A DNA stretch of 45,137 nt. Origin: Escherichia phage vB_Eco_Sem3. Position 1 is the first letter of the stretch. Each line of letters starts with the position of its first letter. The notes under the pieces were generated by a model. The model was not told where the DNA came from. It was given only the letters and a program-made list of their open reading frames with translations, and made no database searches. The stretch is taken from the sequence record PV775410.1; one strand, written 5' to 3'. Made by a program: the position numbers and the translations under genes. Positions 1,009-45,137 of this stretch are shown here, piece by piece.

Positions 1009-2721
1009 CTACTTTGCAACCCAACCTTGAGCAGATGTACCAGATTCTTTAACGTACAATGTACTACCACCAGAACCATTGATATCAGTTGCTAAAGAGC
1101 CTACAGGTGCACCTACGCCTAAAGTTGTAGGGTTGCCATTTAGTCCATAAACAATCACCGTACTAGAACCAACTCCTTGGTTATTCTGAGGCGCCTGTGT
1201 GCCATAGCAATCATTGCCAATGAGTTTAATATTGGAACAAGAAGAAGTAACACGAATACCAAGGCTTGGCTTGTTAGGGCTTTCTCCGTCTACTCCAATA
1301 TTACCTTCTACTAGGATGTTGTTAGCCCCTGTGTCTATACTAATGAAGTGCCTACCTGCTTCAGCTGTAGATACTTCCTTCATATTATTGGCTTTAATCA
1401 CTAGACCGCTAGCCTTGCAGTTTACATGAATACCATATTGCCCTAATTTAGAGAAGATATTACGACTAAGTATACCTCCTCCTGATAAACCAGTACCAAT
1501 GAATGTAGTAGCATCAGACTCACCTAACCAAATCCCACTACCTCTACCGTTTTCCCAAGTATTACCTTCGATGTGGTATTTTGTCCCAAAGCGTAAACCG
1601 ATTAACCCTAAGCCACCAGAGCCTGTATTACCTTTTACAATTAAATTCTTACACCACCTTGCATCTACACCATAGGATACATCCTCTGTGAGGATCATAG
1701 TATTATTAGAAATTTCAATATGGTCATGCCAAATGTCACTAATATCAGTAAAAGGCCAAGATGGTGCAGCAATTAGAACTGGTGTCCTTACGCCATCAAA
1801 AGTGCAATCTACAATACTACCTTGTCGAGTACCCTGCGGTTTAGTCTGAGATGAGACAGGTGTAACATGGACACCTCTTGCATTAGAGTTCCTAAATGTG
1901 CAACCACGCACTGTCCAGTTTTTCCAGTTAAATACACGGACACCTGCAAAGAGAGCACCATCTGTAGTGCAATTCAAGATACGGATATTGTTGTCCTGTA
2001 CACCGTAAGCTGAGGCGTGATTTCCAATCAGTGCACCATAACCTCCAAACCCTGATTCTGTGTTTGGACCAGCATAGCAATTCTCCACCAGCATACCACT
2101 TGACTGTACATAGTGACCAACTGTAATAAGACCTGGGTCTAACTGTATAGCCTCTGAGAAGTTACGACTGCCTGTATTCTTAAAACCTAGGAATTTGCAA
2201 TCACGAATAACTACGTTGTTCCAATCTGCTAAATCTATGGCGTGGTAGTCCACTACATTGTTAACTGTTATGCCTTCAAACTTCAAATCATTATTACTAG
2301 TAGATGCAAATACTACAAAAGGTGTATCTCCCTTAGTGTGACCATTGCCTTCATAGATACCTCCACTGACTGTTACATTACTAGCTTGCCCTTGTGATAA
2401 TCTGAATAACGTATCTCCTGTTTCGTAGTCACGTACAAATGTTACACCTTTAGCAACCTTGAAGTGTGTATTAGCAAATATCTCAACAGTACCACTGAGT
2501 TTGTATTTTCCAGCTTTAGTGACTAATACAGTGCCACCGCCTAACACTCTGACTGCATTGAACGCAGCTTGAAGTGCTTGCCTGTTGTCATTGGAAGATG
2601 GAGTAACTCCAAAATCCGCAACATCTATTGTATCCGATAGTTTATCAGATAGCAGGCGCTCAATAGTACCTGTTAGTTTACTCTTGTACTTCACCAAGTA
2701 AGCACTTAATCTTTGAAGCAT
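1009..2721 (-). CDS. Tailspike protein 2, putative capsule/polysaccharide depolymerase (right-handed beta-helix)
   Basis: 570 aa; repetitive Gly/Asn/Thr/Val-rich beta-helix-like sequence (…NNVVDYHAIDLADWNNVVIRDCKF…); short N-terminal anchor region; RBS GAGGAGG; position matches the second tailspike of SP6/K1-5-type phages. Confidence 0.7.
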   Translation of the reverse strand: MLQRLSAYLVKYKSKLTGTIERLLSDKLSDTIDVADFGVTPSSNDNRQALQAAFNAVRVLGGGTVLVTKAGKYKLSGTVEIFANTHFKVAKGVTFVRDYETGDTLFRLSQGQASNVTVSGGIYEGNGHTKGDTPFVVFASTSNNDLKFEGITVNNVVDYHAIDLADWNNVVIRDCKFLGFKNTGSRNFSEAIQLDPGLITVGHYVQSSGMLVENCYAGPNTESGFGGYGALIGNHASAYGVQDNNIRILNCTTDGALFAGVRVFNWKNWTVRGCTFRNSNARGVHVTPVSSQTKPQGTRQGSIVDCTFDGVRTPVLIAAPSWPFTDISDIWHDHIEISNNTMILTEDVSYGVDARWCKNLIVKGNTGSGGLGLIGLRFGTKYHIEGNTWENGRGSGIWLGESDATTFIGTGLSGGGILSRNIFSKLGQYGIHVNCKASGLVIKANNMKEVSTAEAGRHFISIDTGANNILVEGNIGVDGESPNKPSLGIRVTSSCSNIKLIGNDCYGTQAPQNNQGVGSSTVIVYGLNGNPTTLGVGAPVGSLATDINGSGGSTLYVKESGTSAQGWVAK

Positions 2722-2806
2722 GTAACCTCCTCTTCTGAAAGGCTACCACCATGATAACCTTTAAGAAAAGTTGCGTGAAAAGCAGTGCTTACGCACTGCC
2801 TGTCTC

Positions 2807-4705
2807 TCACTTAGGCAGGGAAGCTAGTGCTTCCTGCATACGCTTGATAGTCCTACGCATCAACGCAGCCTCTAATATCAGTACTTCCTCGTAACGAATA
2901 CCGTAGCGGGAACCTGCTGGTGTAATCAGTTTACGAGAGCCATTGGCATCTTCCTCGTATACATCATCCCAACTGTCGAAGCACAAGAAGCCATAGCGGT
3001 GTGCATCTATGCCGTGACGTTCGAAAGCCTCCTTAGCTCGCTGAGCGATGATACCGAAGTGCCATCTAGCTGAGTCTGCACCCTTCTCCTCAACACGATC
3101 CAAATACTGAAACTGCACAAAGTCAACTTCAGACCAAGCATCCAGTAAGGCATCTGATATAGTAAGAGGTTCTGTTTTACACCGAGCATCTGAGGTGACA
3201 GTGAATGCTGCTTGAGTAAAACCGCCAGACCATGCCCGACTGGCGGAACCTAATGCATATGTACCAGTACTATCTGGGGTCATTGCATCAGCACCTAACT
3301 GCAAAAAGCCTGTGCTACTGGTAGAAAGACGCACGTTACCGTTGGTGAGGGACACTGTCCGAGAAGTACCATCAGAAGTAAATAGGCGAACTTGAGAAGA
3401 AGTGCCCCCACCTACAGCTAATGACACAGCACCATCTCCAAGCATTCTGTACTTATCAGCAGAAGTAAGAACACCTGAAGGGAGTGACATGGACTTAATC
3501 CGCCATTCGAACCTACCTGACATACTACCTATGTACTGCCCTAAGGCAGGTGCGTGCACTACGTTACTATTATTAGTGCCGTCAATAGTAGCTGCACCGT
3601 CAATAGTACTAGCAGAACTGAGAATGTCGTTTCTCCTGCCAGGGTGCTTTACCTCTACGAAGTTACGGGTAGAGCCGGATTCGAAAGTAATAACACCTGT
3701 AGCACTGTAGCTAGGAAATACAGACGCATAGTTGTTATTAGCTGTACCTATAAAGCGTGCAATTGTAGCAGTCTGCCCTTGTCCTAAAGAGTTAGTACCA
3801 TCACATCCTGACATAAGCACATTATTTATGACGTTATCAGATCCCTCTACGGTAACACCATGAGCCTGCCTAGCATCAGAAGTTGAGTAATCTACGAGCA
3901 CGTCTGATATTAAGTTCGTACTTCCTTTGCCTGCAACAACCGCTGCATACTTAGGGTTATTAGCCATCACCCCACTGATAAGGTTATTAGAAGGAGCTAT
4001 TGGCCCTTCAGTGCCGTTGTAAGTTACATGCTGGCAATCTGCCCCTATAACATTACTGACTATGTTGTAACTGGCTGTACCTTTCAACTCTACTGCTCCG
4101 AACTGAGGGTAGTTCTTAGCAATGACGTTATCTATGAGGGAGTTAACTGAGGAGTCAGCAAGTACGCATCCGGCTGCCTTATTAGTAGCATAGCCTGAAT
4201 AGCTACCTCGAATACCTTTAATCATAAGCCCCTCAGGTGGCGCATCATTAGGGTATGCGATTAAACTGAAACCAGTACCTTTAACGTTTGAGAAGTTAAC
4301 GTCACTTACAGTAACATCACTTCCACCAGCAAGAGATACCTGCTGTCCCTGAGTTGTATCAGTCGCCTTATTACTTTCTACCGTAATATTACTTAAGCGA
4401 CCTGCACGTAGATTGTTAAATACTAAGTAGTTACCTGTACTGGAACGGTGACTTAGCACGCCACTACCCCTACCGTCTAAGTTACAGTAATTACTATTAA
4501 TACCAGAGCTAGAGAATACACCATCTGAGACTGTGACAGCTTTCTGAGAGTTTAATGAAGCAGCTATAACCTCCGTATCATCAGTAGTGGCGTCACCTGC
4601 AGCACCAAACGGCTTTGATGTTAAAACTCTCGCATCAAGGTACTCATACAAAGATTGTCCTTTATGCAAGATTCCTTCAGTATTAGGTTTGGTTAATTTA
4701 GCCAT
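2807..4705 (-). CDS. Tailspike protein 1 with C-terminal intramolecular chaperone (peptidase S74-type autoprocessing) domain
   Basis: Start at MAKLTKP (RBS GGAG; track ORF extends 20 codons further upstream). Beta-helix-like body; C-terminus …SDARCKTEPLTISDALLDAWSEVDFVQFQYLDR…FGIIAQRAKEAFERHGID…GFLCFDSWDD resembles the autocleaving chaperone domain of endosialidase-type tailspikes. Confidence 0.8.
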   Translation of the reverse strand: MAKLTKPNTEGILHKGQSLYEYLDARVLTSKPFGAAGDATTDDTEVIAASLNSQKAVTVSDGVFSSSGINSNYCNLDGRGSGVLSHRSSTGNYLVFNNLRAGRLSNITVESNKATDTTQGQQVSLAGGSDVTVSDVNFSNVKGTGFSLIAYPNDAPPEGLMIKGIRGSYSGYATNKAAGCVLADSSVNSLIDNVIAKNYPQFGAVELKGTASYNIVSNVIGADCQHVTYNGTEGPIAPSNNLISGVMANNPKYAAVVAGKGSTNLISDVLVDYSTSDARQAHGVTVEGSDNVINNVLMSGCDGTNSLGQGQTATIARFIGTANNNYASVFPSYSATGVITFESGSTRNFVEVKHPGRRNDILSSASTIDGAATIDGTNNSNVVHAPALGQYIGSMSGRFEWRIKSMSLPSGVLTSADKYRMLGDGAVSLAVGGGTSSQVRLFTSDGTSRTVSLTNGNVRLSTSSTGFLQLGADAMTPDSTGTYALGSASRAWSGGFTQAAFTVTSDARCKTEPLTISDALLDAWSEVDFVQFQYLDRVEEKGADSARWHFGIIAQRAKEAFERHGIDAHRYGFLCFDSWDDVYEEDANGSRKLITPAGSRYGIRYEEVLILEAALMRRTIKRMQEALASLPK

Positions 4706-38955: not shown

Positions 38956-41583
38956 TTATGCGAAGCAATAGTCAGATACTAAGATTTCGTTAAGGTCAAA
39001 TTCTCCTTGCTCTGGCACTTGGATTCCGGTGTCTACTAACCAGCGTTCTTCATGCTCATCTAACAGGCTTTGCAGGGCATTACGACCTTGATACATCTTC
39101 ACCATTTCTGCCCTTAAGCTATCCCGCAGGTCTGCTGTACGGCCTGCATGAGTACCAAAGGAATCATGGATGACTGCAATAGAGGTAATACCTTTATCCA
39201 CTAAAGCACACACCGTTAGAATCAGGTGGCTAGCATCATGACCATGCACGAAGTTAGGAGCAGCCGCACCCATCATGGCTGTTTCATCCACTACATCAGT
39301 CTCAATCTGTAGACTCATCTTGATTTCACCCATCAAGCAAGTGGATACGCGTAGCATGTCGGTAGCCATTATCTTTTGTTGCAAGATGAAACCAGTAGGT
39401 AAGGTGTACTCTAGCCCTTCGTTTCTTTTAGCTGCGAAGCGTGCAAGCTGGCGAATCATTTTCATCGCCACTATAGGAGCTTTAACAACCTCAGAGATAG
39501 AAGGCCAGATTAAAGCTGTCATATAGTTATAAGCTGCGCTAGGTGTCAGGCTGTCCTTACGGTCATTATCAAAAGGGTGTACAGGATTGGCGGTACGCCC
39601 TTCCGCAATAGCTCGTTGGGCCTCTTTTTCTTCCAAATCAACGATATAATCAATCACTGATTCACGGCAGGTTAGACGTGTGCTGCCATAAGGTAGTGTC
39701 ATTACGGGCTTTTTGGTCAATCCGCGAGTGATTCCTATCATATCCCACGCATTAGCCATGCTACGCAGTTCTGCACCTGTAAGTGTGACGCTCCCAGATG
39801 TGAAAGTCACTGCATCGTCTGCATTCATGTAGGCGTAATTCTTCTGGATAACAACCTGCGCAACCGCGCCATAAATATCTTGAGGGAAGTCAGAAGGCTT
39901 AAGGTTTACTGCTTTCGCACCTACTTCATCGCGTAACATCGCGCTATAGTGCTGGATACCAGAGCAACTACCGTCTTGATGGACGGGTAGATGCGTCATG
40001 AATTGGTCTTGCGTGCCTTCATCCAGTGCATCCAGATAACGCGCATATTCAAAGCACCATGCAAGGAAGCCGTAAGGGGAATCAGCATTTACCCATTGAG
40101 TGAAGGTCAGCGGATCGGCTGCAATGTCGCGGCACATGTCTTGAAATTCGCCATCCAGCACGTTAGAGGTGCGCACGTCAAAAGTTTTCTTATCCCAACC
40201 CCAGTTATTCGCCCCGTTCACCAAAAACCACTTAAGCGCCTCAGCGCTATCAAGACGCTGCCCTTCGGTAAAACGGAGCAATGCCTTGCCTAAGTCGTTT
40301 GATTGCGGCGAGAGCGTGCTAGATTGCGCATAAACGCGTGAACGGCTATCCAGTGCATATACAAAATAAATCGCGTCAAACTGGCTGTATTTACGGGCCT
40401 GTCCTACCATGCGGACGGTCGCCGCCGACTTGCTGCCGCGCTTAGTCTCAGCGGTATACAGCTTAGTACATTCACCCTTCCAGTTGATGAAGGCCTGCCA
40501 TTGCTCCGGTGTTAGCATCTCTTTCAATTCACGGCCTCGCAGGTGCTGGAACTCTAACGGCACTGGATTAGCTGGCTTGTTCTCACGGTCGATGAGTGGT
40601 TTAAAGGAAGGCACACCATAACCAAGGTCGAGACGGATAACGTCCTCTACTACCTGCAAAACCTCTTTATTAACCTGCCACTTAGTCGCCTGCAAAGCGT
40701 TAACAGCCTTGTAAACCGCTGGCATTTGCTTTTTGGTCAGCTTGCGGACGTGCTCGCGGTTTCCTTTAACCAGACGAATACGACTCGCCACCTTCTCGGT
40801 ATGGAAGCCACCATTAAACGGAGAAACCCACGGACGAGGAGGAATAACGCAAGGCGCATAGGCTGGACTCAGCTGAGCTACGTGCTCTTTAAATGCAGTT
40901 ATCCATTCACCCACATGTTCGCTAGTCTGTAAGTAGTAAACGCCATGCTTGCCACCATTAGTGCGCAAGGTGCGAAGAAAGACAGGCTGACCATTGAAGA
41001 ATACACTATTTTCCAGTATTTCTAGCAAGGTCATACCTATTTGTAGCAAGGTATCTTTAGGCCACGCCTCCCAGCGAGAGAAATCAGCGTCACGGTCAGC
41101 CACTGACTTCTCAGCCACGACCGCTACGTTGTGCGCATGGCGATATGATTTAGTCTTACTTGCCTTAAGTGACTTCTTAACTTTCTCAAAGTATTTGGCG
41201 GCGTGACCTTCCAGCTTGCTAAAACGTACTTGGTCCTCAATGCGGTCAGCTACATTCATGGCTATAGCCTGCAAGGTTACATCCGTGTTCAGCATATCCA
41301 TAACGATTTTCATCGTGATATATGCTGCCACTTCGTTTTCTACGCAGTTAATGAAAGCTAATGCACGCGGTGCACGGCCTCTTTTACCTTCATACTCTTC
41401 CTTGTATGCCTGAATACCTTCAGCCATTGGCGCGATTAACTCGGACAATAAGCGGCGATTCCAGGCCGTGTCTGATTCATTACCGGATGCAATCTGGCGT
41501 TGTTGGTCCGCTTCAAAGCGACGGATACCGCCGTTAAACATTTCTTCTTCAAGTTGAAGTTGAATAGCGTGTAGGTCTTGCAT
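38956..41583 (-). CDS. Single-subunit DNA-dependent RNA polymerase, SP6-type
   Basis: 875 aa; N-terminus [31 protein letters not shown]… and catalytic motifs (…[15 protein letters not shown]…, …VHDSFGTHA…) match SP6 RNAP as I recall it; RBS AGGAG. Confidence 0.95.
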
Positions 41584-41646
41584 CTTGTTTACTCCTAGTG
41601 AAAGAAACCTTAATAGGTGACACCTAAGAAGATGCCACCGATAAGG

Positions 41647-42570
41647 TTACTTAGTTAATTCTTCTACTGCCTCAGAGATTAAGGGCCATGCTTCATGGCC
41701 TTCGCCGTATCCTAGCTTAACCAGTTCGCGGCGTGCCTTGTTAACTGCTGTTTTCTTCGTTGCCTCCTCAGCGCTTAAACCTAAGCGAGCATAGAAGCAG
41801 GAAGATTTGAATTGCGGCAGCATAGGCGCGGCTGCTTTCTTGCTTTCGCGTGCGCTGCTTAAGGAGGCAATGCGGTCATTAGCTGCCTGTAATTGCTCGG
41901 TCAGTGCTTTAATTTGTGCCAGAAGGCCAGCAATAGCGGCACTCTCGGTGTTAGCCGTGTTATCCAGTGGCGCGGCCTTAGGCGCTTCCGGCTTGCTTTC
42001 ATCTTCCCACGGTGCGGATTCGTCGTTACCCGACTCACTTGCTGGCGGCACACTTTGTAATTCCTCTTTCGCCTTCTCTAAGATGAAATCCTCAAAGGTT
42101 GCATGTCCTTGCATAGTTTCTGCGGCCTCAGTCGCATTCTCCTGCGGTTTTACCGCCTCAGACTTAGATTGTACCGTCTCGGCCTTTGTCTCTTTCTTAG
42201 GATCAATCAGGGCGTTTACGGCGTTAGTGTCCAGCTTGCCCTCTGCGGCGAGTTCTGCGGCCTTCTCCATGATCATATTTTCATCAGCGAAAGGAACAAG
42301 CGCCAGCATTACACGCATAGCCACACCTTTAAAGCGTTCGTCTCCTTCAAAGACACGGGCTACACTCATCAGCTTGTAGCATTGTGCTTTCTTGATGCCG
42401 AACTCTGATTCTACATAAGCTAAAAAGTCTTTTTGACCTTCGAAATCACCGCGTAATTCATTCAGACAAGCGCCAACTTTGATGTAAGAAGTGCCGATAT
42501 TGTCTAAGTGCTGCTTGATTTCAGCGGTTGCAGCTTCACGAACAGACAGAAGGATGTTTTCAGTAGTCAT
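41647..42570 (-). CDS. Early protein of unknown function, 307 aa
   Basis: Start at MTTENIL (RBS AAGGTGA); N-terminal globular region, long acidic Ala/Pro/Glu-rich linker, small C-terminal domain; occupies the T7 gene 0.7 position but has no kinase motifs. Confidence 0.6.
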   Translation of the reverse strand: MTTENILLSVREAATAEIKQHLDNIGTSYIKVGACLNELRGDFEGQKDFLAYVESEFGIKKAQCYKLMSVARVFEGDERFKGVAMRVMLALVPFADENMIMEKAAELAAEGKLDTNAVNALIDPKKETKAETVQSKSEAVKPQENATEAAETMQGHATFEDFILEKAKEELQSVPPASESGNDESAPWEDESKPEAPKAAPLDNTANTESAAIAGLLAQIKALTEQLQAANDRIASLSSARESKKAAAPMLPQFKSSCFYARLGLSAEEATKKTAVNKARRELVKLGYGEGHEAWPLISEAVEELTK

Positions 42571-42631
42571 ATTAATCACCTTATAGTGTAAGTAAATATC
42601 ACATAGCCCACATAGGCAGGCTATAGGCTAG

Positions 42632-42859
42632 TTACTTGATGTAATGCCACGTTTCTATAAATGCATCTTTGCTAATGGCGCATTCCGTGCCGTTAGGTGC
42701 AATGTATTCTACAAGCCCACCTCTTACACAAAGGTAATTACCGCCTTCCTTTCTTAGTTTGCGTTTAGCTTTATCAAATAAGAACTCACGGTAAAGATGA
42801 TAGGAGCACCAGCTTAAGCCAATAAGAGCAAATGCCATAATGATGCTATCTAAATCCAT
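42632..42859 (-). CDS. Early small membrane protein, 75 aa
   Basis: RBS AGGAG; N-terminal TM helix IIMAFALIGLSWCSY, then a basic soluble domain. Confidence 0.55.
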   Translation of the reverse strand: MDLDSIIMAFALIGLSWCSYHLYREFLFDKAKRKLRKEGGNYLCVRGGLVEYIAPNGTECAISKDAFIETWHYIK

Positions 42860-42922
42860 AGTCTTAACTCCTAGTAAGTGAAAGTTTAATCAGGCGCTAC
42901 CGTAGCAACGCCTTGTTAAGCC

Positions 42923-42945
42923 TTCTCTTATAGTGTCAGCTAAAT
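42923..42945 (-). promoter_or_regulatory. Degenerate phage promoter-like sequence (GTCAGCT variant)
   Basis: Minus strand reads ATTTAGCTGACACTATAAGAGAA; lies upstream of the RNAP gene, where a phage promoter would not be expected to act early. Confidence 0.3.
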
Positions 42946-43051
42946 AGTTTGTATGTAGTACCTAGCACTTCCTCACGAATCTGAGCGAATCGTAGGGAAC
43001 ACTTCAGGGTTACACCGTCTGAAAAGATGAAGTTGTATAGCTTTTCCATTC

Positions 43052-43408
43052 TTATTCCTCTTCTTCTTTTTCTAAATATTCGGCAGAGTTGACGTATTCA
43101 ACAATCATATACTGAACACGTTCCCATAGATCAATTGTGAGTTGCTCATAGATACGGGCTTGCAATACTACGGTTACATCCTTAGTGTCTGGCATCAGGC
43201 CGGAGTCTTCGAAGAAATGATCAATTCCTTCACTCGCCATCACGGAGAAGATGTCAGCATAATAGATTGGTACAGCACTATCCGCCGCATCATGGATTGC
43301 ATCATGTGCGTTATCAATACAATCAATAGCATCATTCCAGATACGTTCAACTAATGCAGCATGAGCAGTGTTGTAAACCTGAGAGTAAGTCATATTAGAC
43401 ATAGCCAT
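43052..43408 (-). CDS. ocr: Ocr-like DNA mimic, anti-restriction protein (T7 gp0.3 homolog)
   Basis: Start at MAMSNMTY (RBS GAGGA); …[43 protein letters not shown]…[15 protein letters not shown]… is near-identical in blocks to T7 Ocr as I recall it; acidic C-terminus. Confidence 0.85.
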
Positions 43409-43759
43409 GTTGTTAATCCTCATTTAGTTAGTTAGGTTACATTATAGGAGACTCAAGAGAATCCCCTAGGTTTAACCTATCCAGACTAAGAAGCTTCTAT
43501 CCAAATTGTTAAAGAGCGTGGCTTGTGCCTTGATAGGCTGACTAGTGCCAGCCTTTACTTTAAATCAGTGAGAAACAGCCATACCACTCTTTGAAGCTAG
43601 ATTGGTTTTCCAGTGGTAATATTTCAAGTTTACCATTGACCATACGTTCTACACAAATTAAACCTTTCATGATAATTACCTTAGTTAGTTAGCCTATCAA
43701 GACACAAACCGTATTGTTAAAGAGCGGGATGTTTAAAGACGTCGCCGTCTTGATGCTTA

Positions 43760-43788
43760 ATGTAACCTTGTATGCCGTGGCTGTCAAT
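43760..43788 (-). promoter_or_regulatory. Putative host sigma70 early promoter P2 (TTGACA-N17-TACATT)
   Basis: Minus strand reads TTGACAgccacggcatacaaggtTACATT; followed by a hairpin (AAGACGGCGACGTCTT) and the conserved GCTCTTTAACAAT box. Confidence 0.5.
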
Positions 43789-43795
43789 AGTTAAT

Positions 43796-44005
43796 TTAAA
43801 CTTTATTGCTATTTACTTCTTCCCACTCCAAGGAGTGTTGATTCAGGCTGTTAATCACTCGTTTGTGAGATAACTTGCTTTCAAACTGAAGATAAAACAT
43901 CTCAGTACCATCGTTGAGGTTGTACGTCTGACATTCTGCCTTGTACAAATCGCAGATAGCTTTAGCCGATTTATTGCAATCCGTGTAAATCTCATGTTTA
44001 AACAT
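43796..44005 (-). CDS. Early hypothetical protein, 69 aa
   Basis: RBS AAGGAG; ATG overlaps the stop of the upstream ORF. Confidence 0.55.
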   Translation of the reverse strand: MFKHEIYTDCNKSAKAICDLYKAECQTYNLNDGTEMFYLQFESKLSHKRVINSLNQHSLEWEEVNSNKV

Positions 44006-44174
44006 TGGTTAGCTCCTTCATCAGGTCACGTTTCTGGTTAACTGTATCGGTCCAACCTTCGTTCAGAAAGCGGTGATACAAGGCTAACTCGTCATCTGTA
44101 AGCAATTCGTTGTTACGAATCATGTAGCATAGCAGAGTAAAGATAGCGGACAGTTCACGGTTAGTTAGAGTCAT
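43998..44174 (-). CDS. Early hypothetical protein, 58 aa (MTLTNRELSAIFTLLCYMIRNNELLTDDELALYHRFLNEGW…)
   Basis: Hand-called; RBS GGAGG; ATGA overlap with the upstream ORF. Confidence 0.5.
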   Translation of the reverse strand: MTLTNRELSAIFTLLCYMIRNNELLTDDELALYHRFLNEGWTDTVNQKRDLMKELTNV

Positions 44175-44270
44175 GATAAAGCCTCCACAAACTCAGCATA
44201 AGACAAAGGCTCTTCTCCTCTCACTAATGCGTTATAGTAATAGGCTTTATACAGTTTTTCGTAATTCATA
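44172..44270 (-). CDS. Early hypothetical peptide, 32 aa (MNYEKLYKAYYYNALVRGEEPLSYAEFVEALS)
   Basis: Hand-called; RBS GAGGAA; first ORF downstream of promoter P1. Confidence 0.35.
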
Positions 44271-44390
44271 GCTAATTCCTCATTCAATAAGTAATTAACC
44301 ACGGCATACATAGGTTACACTAAGCAAATTGTTAAAGAGCAAGGTAACTTAGTTACCTACCGTTTGGCTATGTTGCCTCCCGATGACTGT

Positions 44391-44419
44391 AATGTACTAC
44401 CAGCTATTACCTATGTCAA
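44391..44419 (-). promoter_or_regulatory. Putative host sigma70 early promoter P1 (TTGACA-N17-TACATT)
   Basis: Minus strand reads TTGACAtaggtaatagctggtagTACATT; followed by a perfect palindrome GGTAACTAAGTTACC and the GCTCTTTAACAAT box. Confidence 0.5.
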
Positions 44420-44486
44420 CACTAAATTTCACTAAGATAGATTATTTATGTGATACATGTCACAACTACTAAGGTAAACCTAGGTT

Positions 44487-44502
44487 GTCTAACATGTGAG
44501 AC
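44487..44502. repeat. Imperfect copy of the intergenic palindrome (GTCTAACATGTGAGAC, copy 7)
   Basis: Read directly; one mismatch to the perfect palindrome; lies between the ACTAAG repeat array and promoter P1. Confidence 0.6.
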
Positions 44503-44647
44503 TAAGGAAGAGCAACAGATACAGAGCTAGGATAGGCTAGGTTGGCTAGGTTTCTGGTGTTCCTCCTACTGCATCTTATTACTATTCTCTTCTTTAGCGG
44601 TCTACCGACCGCGACCTAATGGCATCTTACATGCTTGCATGTGCAAT

Positions 44648-44787
44648 CACTAAGAGAAGACACTAAGACTTACTAAGGTACACTACTAAGCTATTACTAA
44701 GATAAGCACTAAGGCTTTAACTAGGGTAGTCCACTAAGGTTAACCTAAGCTATCCATCAAGTAATAGCATAAGGTAGTAACTAAGGT
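44648..44787. repeat. Array of short ACTAAG(G) repeats next to the terminal repeat
   Basis: At least eight copies of (C/T)ACTAAG(G) at irregular 10-25 bp spacing; four more inside the terminal repeat itself. Confidence 0.6.
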
Positions 44788-45137
44788 ACACGTCAGGCTT
44801 GTGAGTGGAGCGCTAGCGAAACGAACAGATAGCCCACGCCCTCCCACCCTGTCAAACGCTCAGGAATGGCCCTGAATAGCCTCAGGAATGCACTAAGCGG
44901 CTTCACTAAGGCAATCACCTTGTCCACCACTAAGCCATCCCTAGGCCGTCCTAGGCGCTCTCCAGCGTTCCACCTTGCTAGTACATGAGCAAAGACTAGG
45001 CTGTACCAGCTAACTAGTACGGCCTGCCCTTGTGTACTACTAAGCTAGTACAAGGAGTACATCAGCCCTGCCCCGTCGAAGACGGATTTCCTCAGGCCAC
45101 CCTATGGGGGCAACCCGGCGAGGGCGAGGAAGCAGAG

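Follow-up and report, generated by a model that had tools for sequence, protein, structure and literature searches.

Three copies of a ribosomal RNA-type boxA in the early region of Escherichia phage vB_Eco_Sem3 adjoin predicted long-range helices around small gene cassettes

Why does a lytic phage keep three exact copies of a 13-base box in the region that is transcribed early by the host RNA polymerase? This question is raised by Escherichia phage vB_Eco_Sem3. The DNA analysed here (the window: record PV775410.1, 45,137 bases) is the reverse complement of a complete Vectrevirus genome (K1-5/K1E/SP6-like; Autographiviridae, Molineuxvirinae), and the box array lies at the phage left end, which is the early region for host RNA polymerase. 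A sequence-only reading of the window had proposed a repeated module in which a promoter and a small hairpin precede the box, and had regarded this as a conserved leader element. Our work suggests the following answer: the boxes are likely to be elements of the boxA type found in ribosomal RNA (rRNA; rrn) operons, present in the early transcripts of the host polymerase and combined with helices that enclose small gene cassettes, possibly with a tethered delivery of the helix strands and a release of the cassettes by RNase III.

The 13-mer GCTCTTTAACAAT indeed exists in three copies on the minus strand as the earlier reading had stated; all three are exact, and the sequence occurs nowhere else in the window:

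44328-44340, minus strand: boxA-1, which with its flanking bases forms the 16 nucleotides (nt) TGCTCTTTAACAATTT, identical to the rrnB leader
43713-43725, minus strand: boxA-2, exact 13-mer
43505-43517, minus strand: boxA-3, exact 13-mer

The rrnB leader of E. coli MG1655 reads ...gcggcacTGCTCTTTAACAATTTatcag..., and its boxA 13-mer agrees with the phage box at 13 of 13 positions; around boxA-1, the identity covers 16 of 16 consecutive bases. Since this match is exact, the phage box can be identified, as far as sequence can tell, as rrn boxA, the site at which NusB and NusE are loaded in E. coli. The consensus of functional boxA elements in gamma-proteobacteria, GYTCTTTAANA (Baniulyte et al., PMC5725501), leads to the same three positions: it matches the 45-kb window at exactly the three boxes and at no other site, shuffled sequences hold 0.28 matches on average, and three matches were reached in none of 100 shuffles. 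The early leaders of SP6, K1-5 and T7 contain two, three and one copies of this consensus, respectively. A near-match close to the other genome end (GCTCTTTAGCAAC, 1088-1100, minus strand) was rejected, as its two mismatches correspond to the chance level.

The conservation of the box points in the same direction. We compared 14 phage genomes: Molineuxvirinae, Studiervirinae (T7, K30, EV136_1), Corkvirinae (PhiM1), and unclassified Edwardsiella and Cronobacter phages. These genomes, which represent at least three subfamilies of the Autographiviridae, contain 28 boxA sites, all of them on the transcribed strand of the early region, and the sites vary only in the last base, apart from one GTTC variant. 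The sequence upstream of the box is mostly unrelated between the phages, and with 1.1 kb of the region as a blastn query, distant phages match over about 60 nt only, mostly starting at a box. Thus, the box is kept in all 14 genomes, and together with the shuffling result this supports the view of the earlier reading that it is a conserved early leader element rather than a product of chance. In the predicted fold of the full transcript from promoter P1 (see below), which is an equilibrium and not a co-transcriptional fold, the mean unpaired probabilities of boxes 1, 2 and 3 are 0.71, 0.74 and 0.53. A boxA in the early leader of a T7-group phage is an already known element with genetic support in T7, and we have hardly any doubt that the boxes of Sem3 are functional boxA elements as well.

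Outside this group, the matches listed in an IMG/VR scan for TGCTCTTTAACAAT were mostly chance or in unrelated contexts, and we do not use them as evidence of spread. Many other viral contigs among those listed (e.g. L075, L021, L106, L094, L115 and L015; not T7-like as far as examined) have a GC-rich hairpin directly before GCTCTTTAACAAT-CTGGAT. This is the extended form found at the boxA of the rrn 16S-23S spacer (GCTCTTTAAAAATCTGGAT) and in EV136_1, whereas T7 has CTGGT. These contigs suggest that the use of rrn-type boxA elements may be widespread in other phage groups.

What, then, does the box work with? The top inverted repeats of the early region directly adjoin the boxes and correspond to two long-range helices, B behind boxA-1 and A behind boxA-2:

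44297-44326, minus strand: 5' arm of helix B, starting 2 nt after boxA-1 (inverted repeats I5 and I11; duplex free energy (ΔG) -49.4, z score -9.4)
43754-43782, minus strand: 3' arm of helix B, within the spacer and -10 element of promoter P2
43686-43710, minus strand: 5' arm of helix A, starting 3 nt after boxA-2 (inverted repeat I1; ΔG -42.0, z -6.1)
43520-43544, minus strand: 3' arm of helix A, ending 2 nt before boxA-3

Helix B has 29 pairs and helix A 24-25, both longer than the 17 base pairs (bp) taken as the threshold for a leader-trailer helix. The 5' arm of helix A is followed by a stop in all three frames (TAACTAACTAA), a Shine-Dalgarno sequence and an ATG. Such partners are a common feature of the boxes: the 45 nt behind each boxA were compared with the following 1,300 nt to find the most stable RNA duplex, shuffled sequences serving as controls, and a long-range partner (ΔG -40 to -54 kcal/mol, z -4.2 to -10.8) was present at 16 of the 28 sites. 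At these 16 phage sites the first pair of the helix lies 1-4 nt after the 13-mer, and wherever there is a further boxA, 0-27 nt separate it from the end of the 3' arm. The other 12 sites have no partner within 1,300 nt (z -2.2 to +1.1); they comprise, for each phage, the boxA nearest to ocr, to the S-adenosylmethionine (SAM) hydrolase gene or to another downstream gene, and also the only boxA of T7 and the only one of EV136_1. As a negative control we used 112 sites with the same 14-mer, among the matches listed, in viral contigs that were not chosen for relatedness. Only six of these had z scores of -6.9 or below, five of them in Vectrevirus-like contigs and one in contig L032 (see below), and the others remained above -4.

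The two arms of each helix have changed together. For helix A (alignment A1, 17 distinct sequences), 99.1% of the cells are in standard pairs, five pairs with 19 cells have changed on both sides, and the covariation score of 0.258 (0.144 in shuffles) was reached in none of 500 shuffles; when the partner was slid, only 25-43% of the cells were paired. For helix B (alignment A2, 12 sequences), 97.6% of the cells are paired and 14 of the 29 pairs have changed on both sides, again with 0 of 500 shuffles reaching this and with 24-40% paired after sliding. The paired count of helix B is conservative, because MAFFT misplaces one gap in phD2B, and the approximately six false unpaired cells were left in. 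Examples of paired changes are CTTGATAGG/CCTATCAAG versus CCTGATAGG/CCTATCAGG versus CGTGATAGG/CCTATCACG versus CTTGGTAGG/CCTACCAAG, GTGTAACCT/AGGTTACAT versus GGTGTATTC/GAATATACT, and GTATGCC/GGCATAC versus GTAAGCC/GGCTTAC. Moreover, the cells that are not Watson-Crick pairs are mostly G.U pairs in the sense strand: 34 as compared to three others in helix A, and 22 as compared to nine others in helix B. Since the same positions would be A.C in the opposite strand, this excess speaks for RNA pairing in the sense transcript. Finally, the minimum free energy (MFE) structure of the 985-nt P1 transcript holds both helices (26 of 29 pairs for B, 24 of 24 for A; mean pair probabilities 0.92 and 0.96). 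It is thus highly likely that helices A and B form in the RNA.

The two promoters had been described in the sequence-only reading as near-identical and sigma70-like. This holds true: TTGACA-N17-TACATT at 44419..44391 and 43787..43759 gives the two best sigma-70 matches of the region, each with 10 of 12 positions, and the promoter scan shows no strong promoter of its own upstream of box 3, as that reading had implied.

44391-44419, minus strand: predicted promoter P1 (TTGACA-N17-TACATT), early, host-type, 10 of 12 matches; the same promoter is present in SP6
43759-43787, minus strand: predicted promoter P2 (TTGACA-N17-TACATT), early, host-type, with its -35 core TTGAC invariant in 12 phages

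The 3' arm of helix B sits inside the TTGACA-N17 promoter in 12 of 12 aligned phages. Since this arm is built into P2, transcripts that start at P2 would lack it. P1 read-through RNA that is cut in helix B would begin at nearly the same place as the primary transcripts of P2.

The order of these parts is known from the host. The phage leader resembles the E. coli rrn leader (boxB-boxA-boxC) in its identical boxA 13-mer and in the hairpin directly before boxA-1. In rrnB, the same partner search finds the 5' strand of the 16S leader-trailer helix at +1 of boxA and its partner just past the 16S 3' end (ΔG -56.6, z -9.3). In both cases the 5' strand of the long-range helix (25-40 bp in rrn) comes directly after boxA and the 3' strand past the enclosed unit, and as with the rrn spacer boxA, a second boxA follows the enclosed unit in the phage. 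The 3' arm stands just before the next boxA, so each cassette would be enclosed like 16S rRNA in its leader-trailer helix. For the rrn spacer boxA (L135 2223), the 45-nt query found no partner (z +1.4); the 23S helix strand is further away from this box, so the immediate adjacency of box and arm parallels the 16S leader only. Unlike in rrn, the phage helices enclose one to three small protein-coding open reading frames (ORFs) of 110-480 nt in total length of the enclosed stretch rather than a structural RNA of 1.5 kb, the arms are unrelated to boxC, one 3' arm is built into a promoter, and the carrier is a lytic phage genome. As the enclosed unit codes for proteins and not for rRNA, the phage helices are an analogue and not a member of the rRNA leader-trailer helix. 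The early operon can be described, from its predicted parts, as the rrn layout with messenger RNA (mRNA) cassettes in place of rRNA, i. e. as a miniature rRNA operon.

Box 3 is a different case: it has no long-range partner in the next 1,300 nt (z +1.1). In its place, a local hairpin leads over to the first gene past the array:

43425-43488, minus strand: long irregular local hairpin of 64 nt between boxA-3 and the ocr ribosome-binding site (ΔG -25.4, z -4.35, 0 of 200 shuffles)
43052-43408, minus strand: ocr, an anti-restriction DNA mimic and the first gene past the boxA array (phrog_2568 'ocr-like anti-restriction', E 2.3e-46; annotated as Ocr in relatives)

The hairpin extends as far as the three-frame stop TAACTAACTAA and the ribosome-binding site of ocr. 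Its outer stem GGATAGGTTA/TAACCTAAC is largely conserved in 12 phages, in which the inner stem is replaced by unrelated, still-pairing sequence; as the inner stems are not homologous, the consensus fold from box 3 to ocr is poor, and folds of the individual sequences were used instead. The early leader of T7 is arranged similarly: past strong host promoters, its nt 813-825 form the identical 13-mer, in the interval from promoter A3 to gene 0.3 (ocr), and an irregular local hairpin of similar shape stands in the corresponding place (T7 844-911), followed by ocr. We take the RNase III site R0.3 of T7 to be located in this leader hairpin region (Dunn & Studier 1983). The Sem3 hairpin has the form of a T7-type early RNase III site, an irregular hairpin of about 50-70 nt with an internal loop directly before the ribosome-binding site, and is by analogy a candidate RNase III site in the position of R0.3. 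In T7, boxA mutations, like down-mutations of A3, make the host-polymerase inhibitor Gp2 dispensable (Savalia et al., as related in PMC3709561), and the phenotype of the boxA mutant is described there as consistent with anti-terminated host transcription. Unlike T7, which has one boxA for three promoters and no long-range helix (z -0.6), Sem3 has three boxes, two of them with cassette-enclosing helices. Likewise, rrn-type boxA elements control Rho termination outside of rRNA operons in the suhB leader and in CRISPR array leaders (PMC5725501, PMC7665894), but as far as the accessible text of these reports goes, they are single copies without an adjacent leader-trailer helix, whereas Sem3 has an array. 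In the literature searched, which excluded the SP6/K1-5 genome papers and Savalia 2010, we found no description of boxA-adjacent leader-trailer helices around phage mRNA cassettes.

An exact 12-mer repeat, CTAACTAACTAA (minus strand), stands at 43424-43435, shortly before the ribosome-binding site of ocr, and at 43681-43692, shortly before that of the 36-amino-acid ORF. It puts a stop codon in all three frames, and the same or a closely similar motif is present at that position in most relatives.

The small hairpins in front of the boxes, which the sequence-only reading had made part of its module, exist as described at all three sites and fold as small hairpins:

44342-44358, minus strand: hp1 (ΔG -6.6, z -2.3), ending 1 nt before boxA-1 and present in the MFE structure of the whole transcript
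43736-43751, minus strand: hp2 with a GCGA tetraloop (ΔG -6.7, z -3.8), near the predicted 5' end of the P2 transcripts and present in the MFE structure
43535-43554, minus strand: hp3 (ΔG -13.1, z -3.9), next to the 3' arm of helix A, with which it competes in part

The position of hp1 is that of boxB in rrn leaders; SP6 has this hairpin with one compensatory change, and K1-5, CrRp3 and BP12B have none. CrRp3 keeps hp2 with a GGGA loop. Alignment A1 shows the stem of hp3 to be conserved, with covariation (GCTGGC/GCCAGC versus GCCAGC/GCTGGC versus GCTAGC). It rivals the end of helix A (43520-43544) for the same AGCC/GGCT bases and is absent from the global MFE structure; this competition may be an alternative-structure switch, or hp3 may be stacked on a shorter helix A.

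The genes within the helices form two cassettes:

43796-44269, minus strand: cargo of cassette 1 within helix B, three ORFs of 32, 58 and 69 amino acids (PHROG 2061, 9275 and 6403, all of unknown function)
43560-43670, minus strand: cargo of cassette 2 within helix A, an ORF of 36 amino acids without a PHROG match

Along the early operon, P1 is followed by hp1, boxA-1 and helix B around the three small ORFs, with its 3' arm within P2; then come hp2, boxA-2 and helix A around the 36-amino-acid ORF, with hp3 beside the 3' arm, and finally boxA-3, the local hairpin and ocr. The frame of helix A has a fixed order (boxA, 5' arm, three-frame stop, Shine-Dalgarno sequence, ATG, the coding sequence with its stop, hp3, 3' arm), and in the sampled phages it holds 17 different ORFs. 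Only two pairs among them are related by blastp, and there are therefore about 15 unrelated cargos in one RNA frame. A cassette of this type is also present in K30, which belongs to another subfamily, and a 50-nt query with the box and the 5' arm found 142 phage records, almost all without annotation under the match; a pattern scan of IMG/VR for the frame gave only 16 loci, several of which are isolate-genome phages already compared. The order of the modules differs between phages, with the joints at the box: SP6 has up1-box-down2 and up3-box-down1, and CrRp3 has up2-box-down3. In one of the helix-A frames (L141, about 2015-2145), the cargo ORF (MKYKYNEGYAAYHAGLERAACPYPFDTEDSNTWLIGWLVGRYE) resembles the ribosome modulation factor (Rmf) by eye, with a CPY...W..GW motif.

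The L032 locus identified in the control set deserves mention here. At 2600-3010 (minus strand), it has a boxA, a 31-bp 5' arm at +2, an ORF of 68 amino acids and then the 3' arm (ΔG -58.4, z -8.8). Its arms are unrelated in sequence to those of families A and B, and there are tandem short repeats upstream. The contig comes from an unclassified phage whose genome is laid out differently and whose DNA matches none of 50,697 phage records. It appears, from these predicted parts, to be an independent instance of the same order.

A further variation concerns helix-A cassettes that are not followed by a boxA: L125 (PhiM1) 730-990, L128 (Peggy) 1102-1350, and also L138, L141 and L148. In these loci, an "anti-boxA" (GAGAGTTAAGAG or GATTCTTAAATGGC) stands behind the 3' arm and extends the helix over the box, so that 10-11 of the 13 boxA nt are paired (ΔG -45 to -58). 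In the window and in SP6, where a boxA follows the cassette, no boxA nt is paired in the helix. The anti-boxA could be a self-limiting switch that hides boxA after the cassette has been transcribed.

How might these parts act together? In rrn operons, the 16S leader-trailer helix of 25-40 bp is essential for 30S biogenesis (Warner et al., PMC10250234). According to the delivery model of Wahl and co-workers, the NusB-anchored boxA keeps boxC at the RNA exit channel while the 16S RNA loops out, the trailer pairs on emerging, and the duplex is then cleaved by RNase III. These operons can do without boxB, and boxA is both required and sufficient (PMC10250234, PMC8632103). By the identity with the rrn and T7 elements, each boxA in the nascent phage RNA would bind NusB-NusE(S10), and NusA, NusG and SuhB would join to give a fast, Rho-resistant elongation complex of the ribosomal type, which could reach ocr and the gene of the phage RNA polymerase across the many early cassettes that are small and in part untranslated. 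In analogy to rrn, the boxA-tethered complex would not let go of the 5' arm at the exit channel before the 3' arm has emerged, thereby favouring helix formation. After cleavage of the helix by RNase III, the released cassette mRNAs would have ends that are paired and protected, and the Nus factors would be loaded anew at the next boxA. At boxA-3, the RNase III-type local hairpin before ocr would follow, as in T7. The earlier idea of RNase III processing is thus plausible for the 43425-43488 hairpin and for the long-range helices, but not for the hairpins of 6-8 bp. The idea that box and helix are mechanistically coupled and that RNase III cuts there is drawn by analogy, and we find it possible while leaning slightly towards doubt. 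Still more tentatively, and with doubt outweighing belief, it is tempting to speculate that lytic phages of the T7, SP6 and KP34 types package their first anti-host genes in portable "mini-rRNA-operon" cassettes that exploit both the anti-termination and the RNA-chaperone ("delivery") activity of the complex: the helix would be delivered, the cassette excised by RNase III and boxA reloaded, the anti-boxA would switch the modification off in cassettes with no boxA behind them, and the frame would provide the homology for swapping unrelated genes between subfamilies.

Several points weigh against this interpretation. Nus binding, Rho read-through, RNase III cleavage and transcript ends are all deduced from sequence, and related sequences inflate covariation statistics that are based on shuffles. 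The boxA of T7 and that of EV136_1 are without any long-range helix; the box therefore works alone, and the close spacing could just reflect compact leaders. In rrn, insertion of 6-12 nt between boxA and boxC lowered the activity by only 25-50% (PMC10250234), and tight spacing therefore need not be critical. Moreover, the boxes are junctions of module shuffling, and the adjacency of box and helix could therefore be in part a by-product of recombination.

Other explanations of the locus were considered as well. That promoter, small hairpin and box form the regulatory unit, with the hairpins as RNase III sites or as leader signals read together with the box, would fit with the facts that all three hairpins exist and are more stable than most of their shuffled versions, that hp1 lies directly before boxA like boxB in rrn, and that hp3 is conserved and covaries. 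However, RNase III substrates need roughly two helical turns, and the stems of 6-8 bp are far too short for this. The three hairpins are unrelated to each other and lie about 1, 10 and 17 nt from the box, and a perfect boxA stands without a preceding hairpin at site 1 of K1-5, in PhiM1, Peggy and Koku, at site 1 of CrRp3 and in BP12B, among others. With the unrelated upstream sequences and so many sites without a hairpin, "hairpin then box" is therefore not the conserved unit: in the same-position comparison with related phages that the earlier reading had called for, the box was retained and this order was not. The conserved partner lies instead downstream, as the long-range arm for boxes 1 and 2 and as the local hairpin for box 3. 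Together with the dispensability of boxB in rrn operons (PMC10250234, PMC8632103), this makes the small-hairpin unit very improbable. The hairpins also invite a comparison with the nut sites of lambda, where boxA and host Nus factors likewise serve to make RNA polymerase termination-resistant: a phage protein similar to N might bind the hairpins and drive anti-termination with boxA. A boxA near a hairpin belongs to the grammar of nut sites, and the loop of hp2 is of the GNRA type. Unlike in nut (boxA-boxB), however, the hairpins precede the boxes as in rrn, and a long-range arm or a hairpin of about 60 nt follows; the hairpins are not conserved; and no N-like protein is evident, as the early ORFs match only PHROG families of unknown function. 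The boxA of lambda nut is a weaker form than the full rrn consensus, which is what the phage box has. Since the boxes precede all phage genes, the first transcripts must also act before any phage protein exists, and we regard a lambda-type nut site as extremely improbable.

The boxes might also be mainly translational or autoregulatory repressor sites similar to the suhB-type boxA, with the Nus complex near the start codon, rather than anti-terminators. Baniulyte et al. (PMC5725501) showed that a gene can be repressed by a boxA located within about 50 nt upstream of its start codon, and boxA-2 and boxA-1 end 42 and 58 nt before the next likely start codon; boxA-3, however, is 96 nt from the ocr start. 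The identical T7 element acts genetically as an anti-terminator in the account given in PMC3709561, for a lytic phage it would be strange to repress the first of all its anti-host genes, and the flanking helices are left unexplained, so this role is improbable. An alternative at the level of DNA, in which boxes and inverted repeats are recombination joints of the cassettes or sites for DNA-binding proteins with no role in RNA, draws on the shuffling of modules exactly at the box in SP6 and CrRp3, and on the unrelated ORFs in one helix frame with such a cassette even in the different subfamily of K30. Same-strand G.T pairing in single-stranded DNA would also be compatible with the sequence data. 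Yet the box is the exact host rrn boxA and always lies in the sense strand, the arms of each helix change together across phages, and the mismatches are overwhelmingly G.U in the sense strand and A.C in the other one. We consider the absence of an RNA role improbable, too; the exchange of cassettes and a function in RNA are not mutually exclusive.

The box taken alone would be an ordinary finding, as Sem3 is then one more phage that uses the host boxA, as T7 does. The rrn-like arrangement of boxes and helices would offer more: a small, non-essential and easily mutated system for the delivery model, which is hard to test on rRNA itself. The question whether the polymerase modified by Nus factors and SuhB holds the boxA-proximal strand and delivers it to a distant partner could be addressed here over 110-480 nt as compared to 1.5 kb. 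If true, the arrangement would explain the expression and stability of many tiny early phage genes despite Rho and exonucleases. The frame of helix A, almost never annotated in the matching phage records, would be a recognisable marker for early anti-host and anti-defence genes, and it might serve phage engineering as a compact insulated expression cassette.

The examined region is 100% identical to that of Escherichia phage vB_Eco_Sem1. The genes of the left end lie on the minus strand and lead from the terminal repeat (around 45137) via the small early ORFs to ocr and to the following gene:

38956-41583, minus strand: phage RNA polymerase gene

An Rfam scan of 42500-45137 (E <= 10) found no relevant family, only weak microRNA- or small nucleolar RNA-like matches, one of which flagged a long hairpin. 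This spurious microRNA-like match comes from a long local hairpin at 42868-42938 (minus strand), directly 5' of the ribosome-binding site of a 75-amino-acid ORF (ΔG -29.7, z -4.46). A similar hairpin at 41605-41648 (minus strand) lies directly 5' of the ribosome-binding site of the RNA polymerase gene (ΔG -22.5, z -5.28), and both are candidate processing or stabilising structures. Sequences similar to SP6-type promoters of phage RNA polymerase are present on the minus strand of the early region at about 42921-42943 and 42579-42601 (ATTTAGCTGACACTATAAGAG, ATTTACTTACACTATAAGGTG). Finally, short direct repeats based on ACTAAGG / CCTTAGT (families D2-D6) form an array at 44467-44800, between the terminal region and P1, that is reminiscent of the short repeats near the genome ends of T7.

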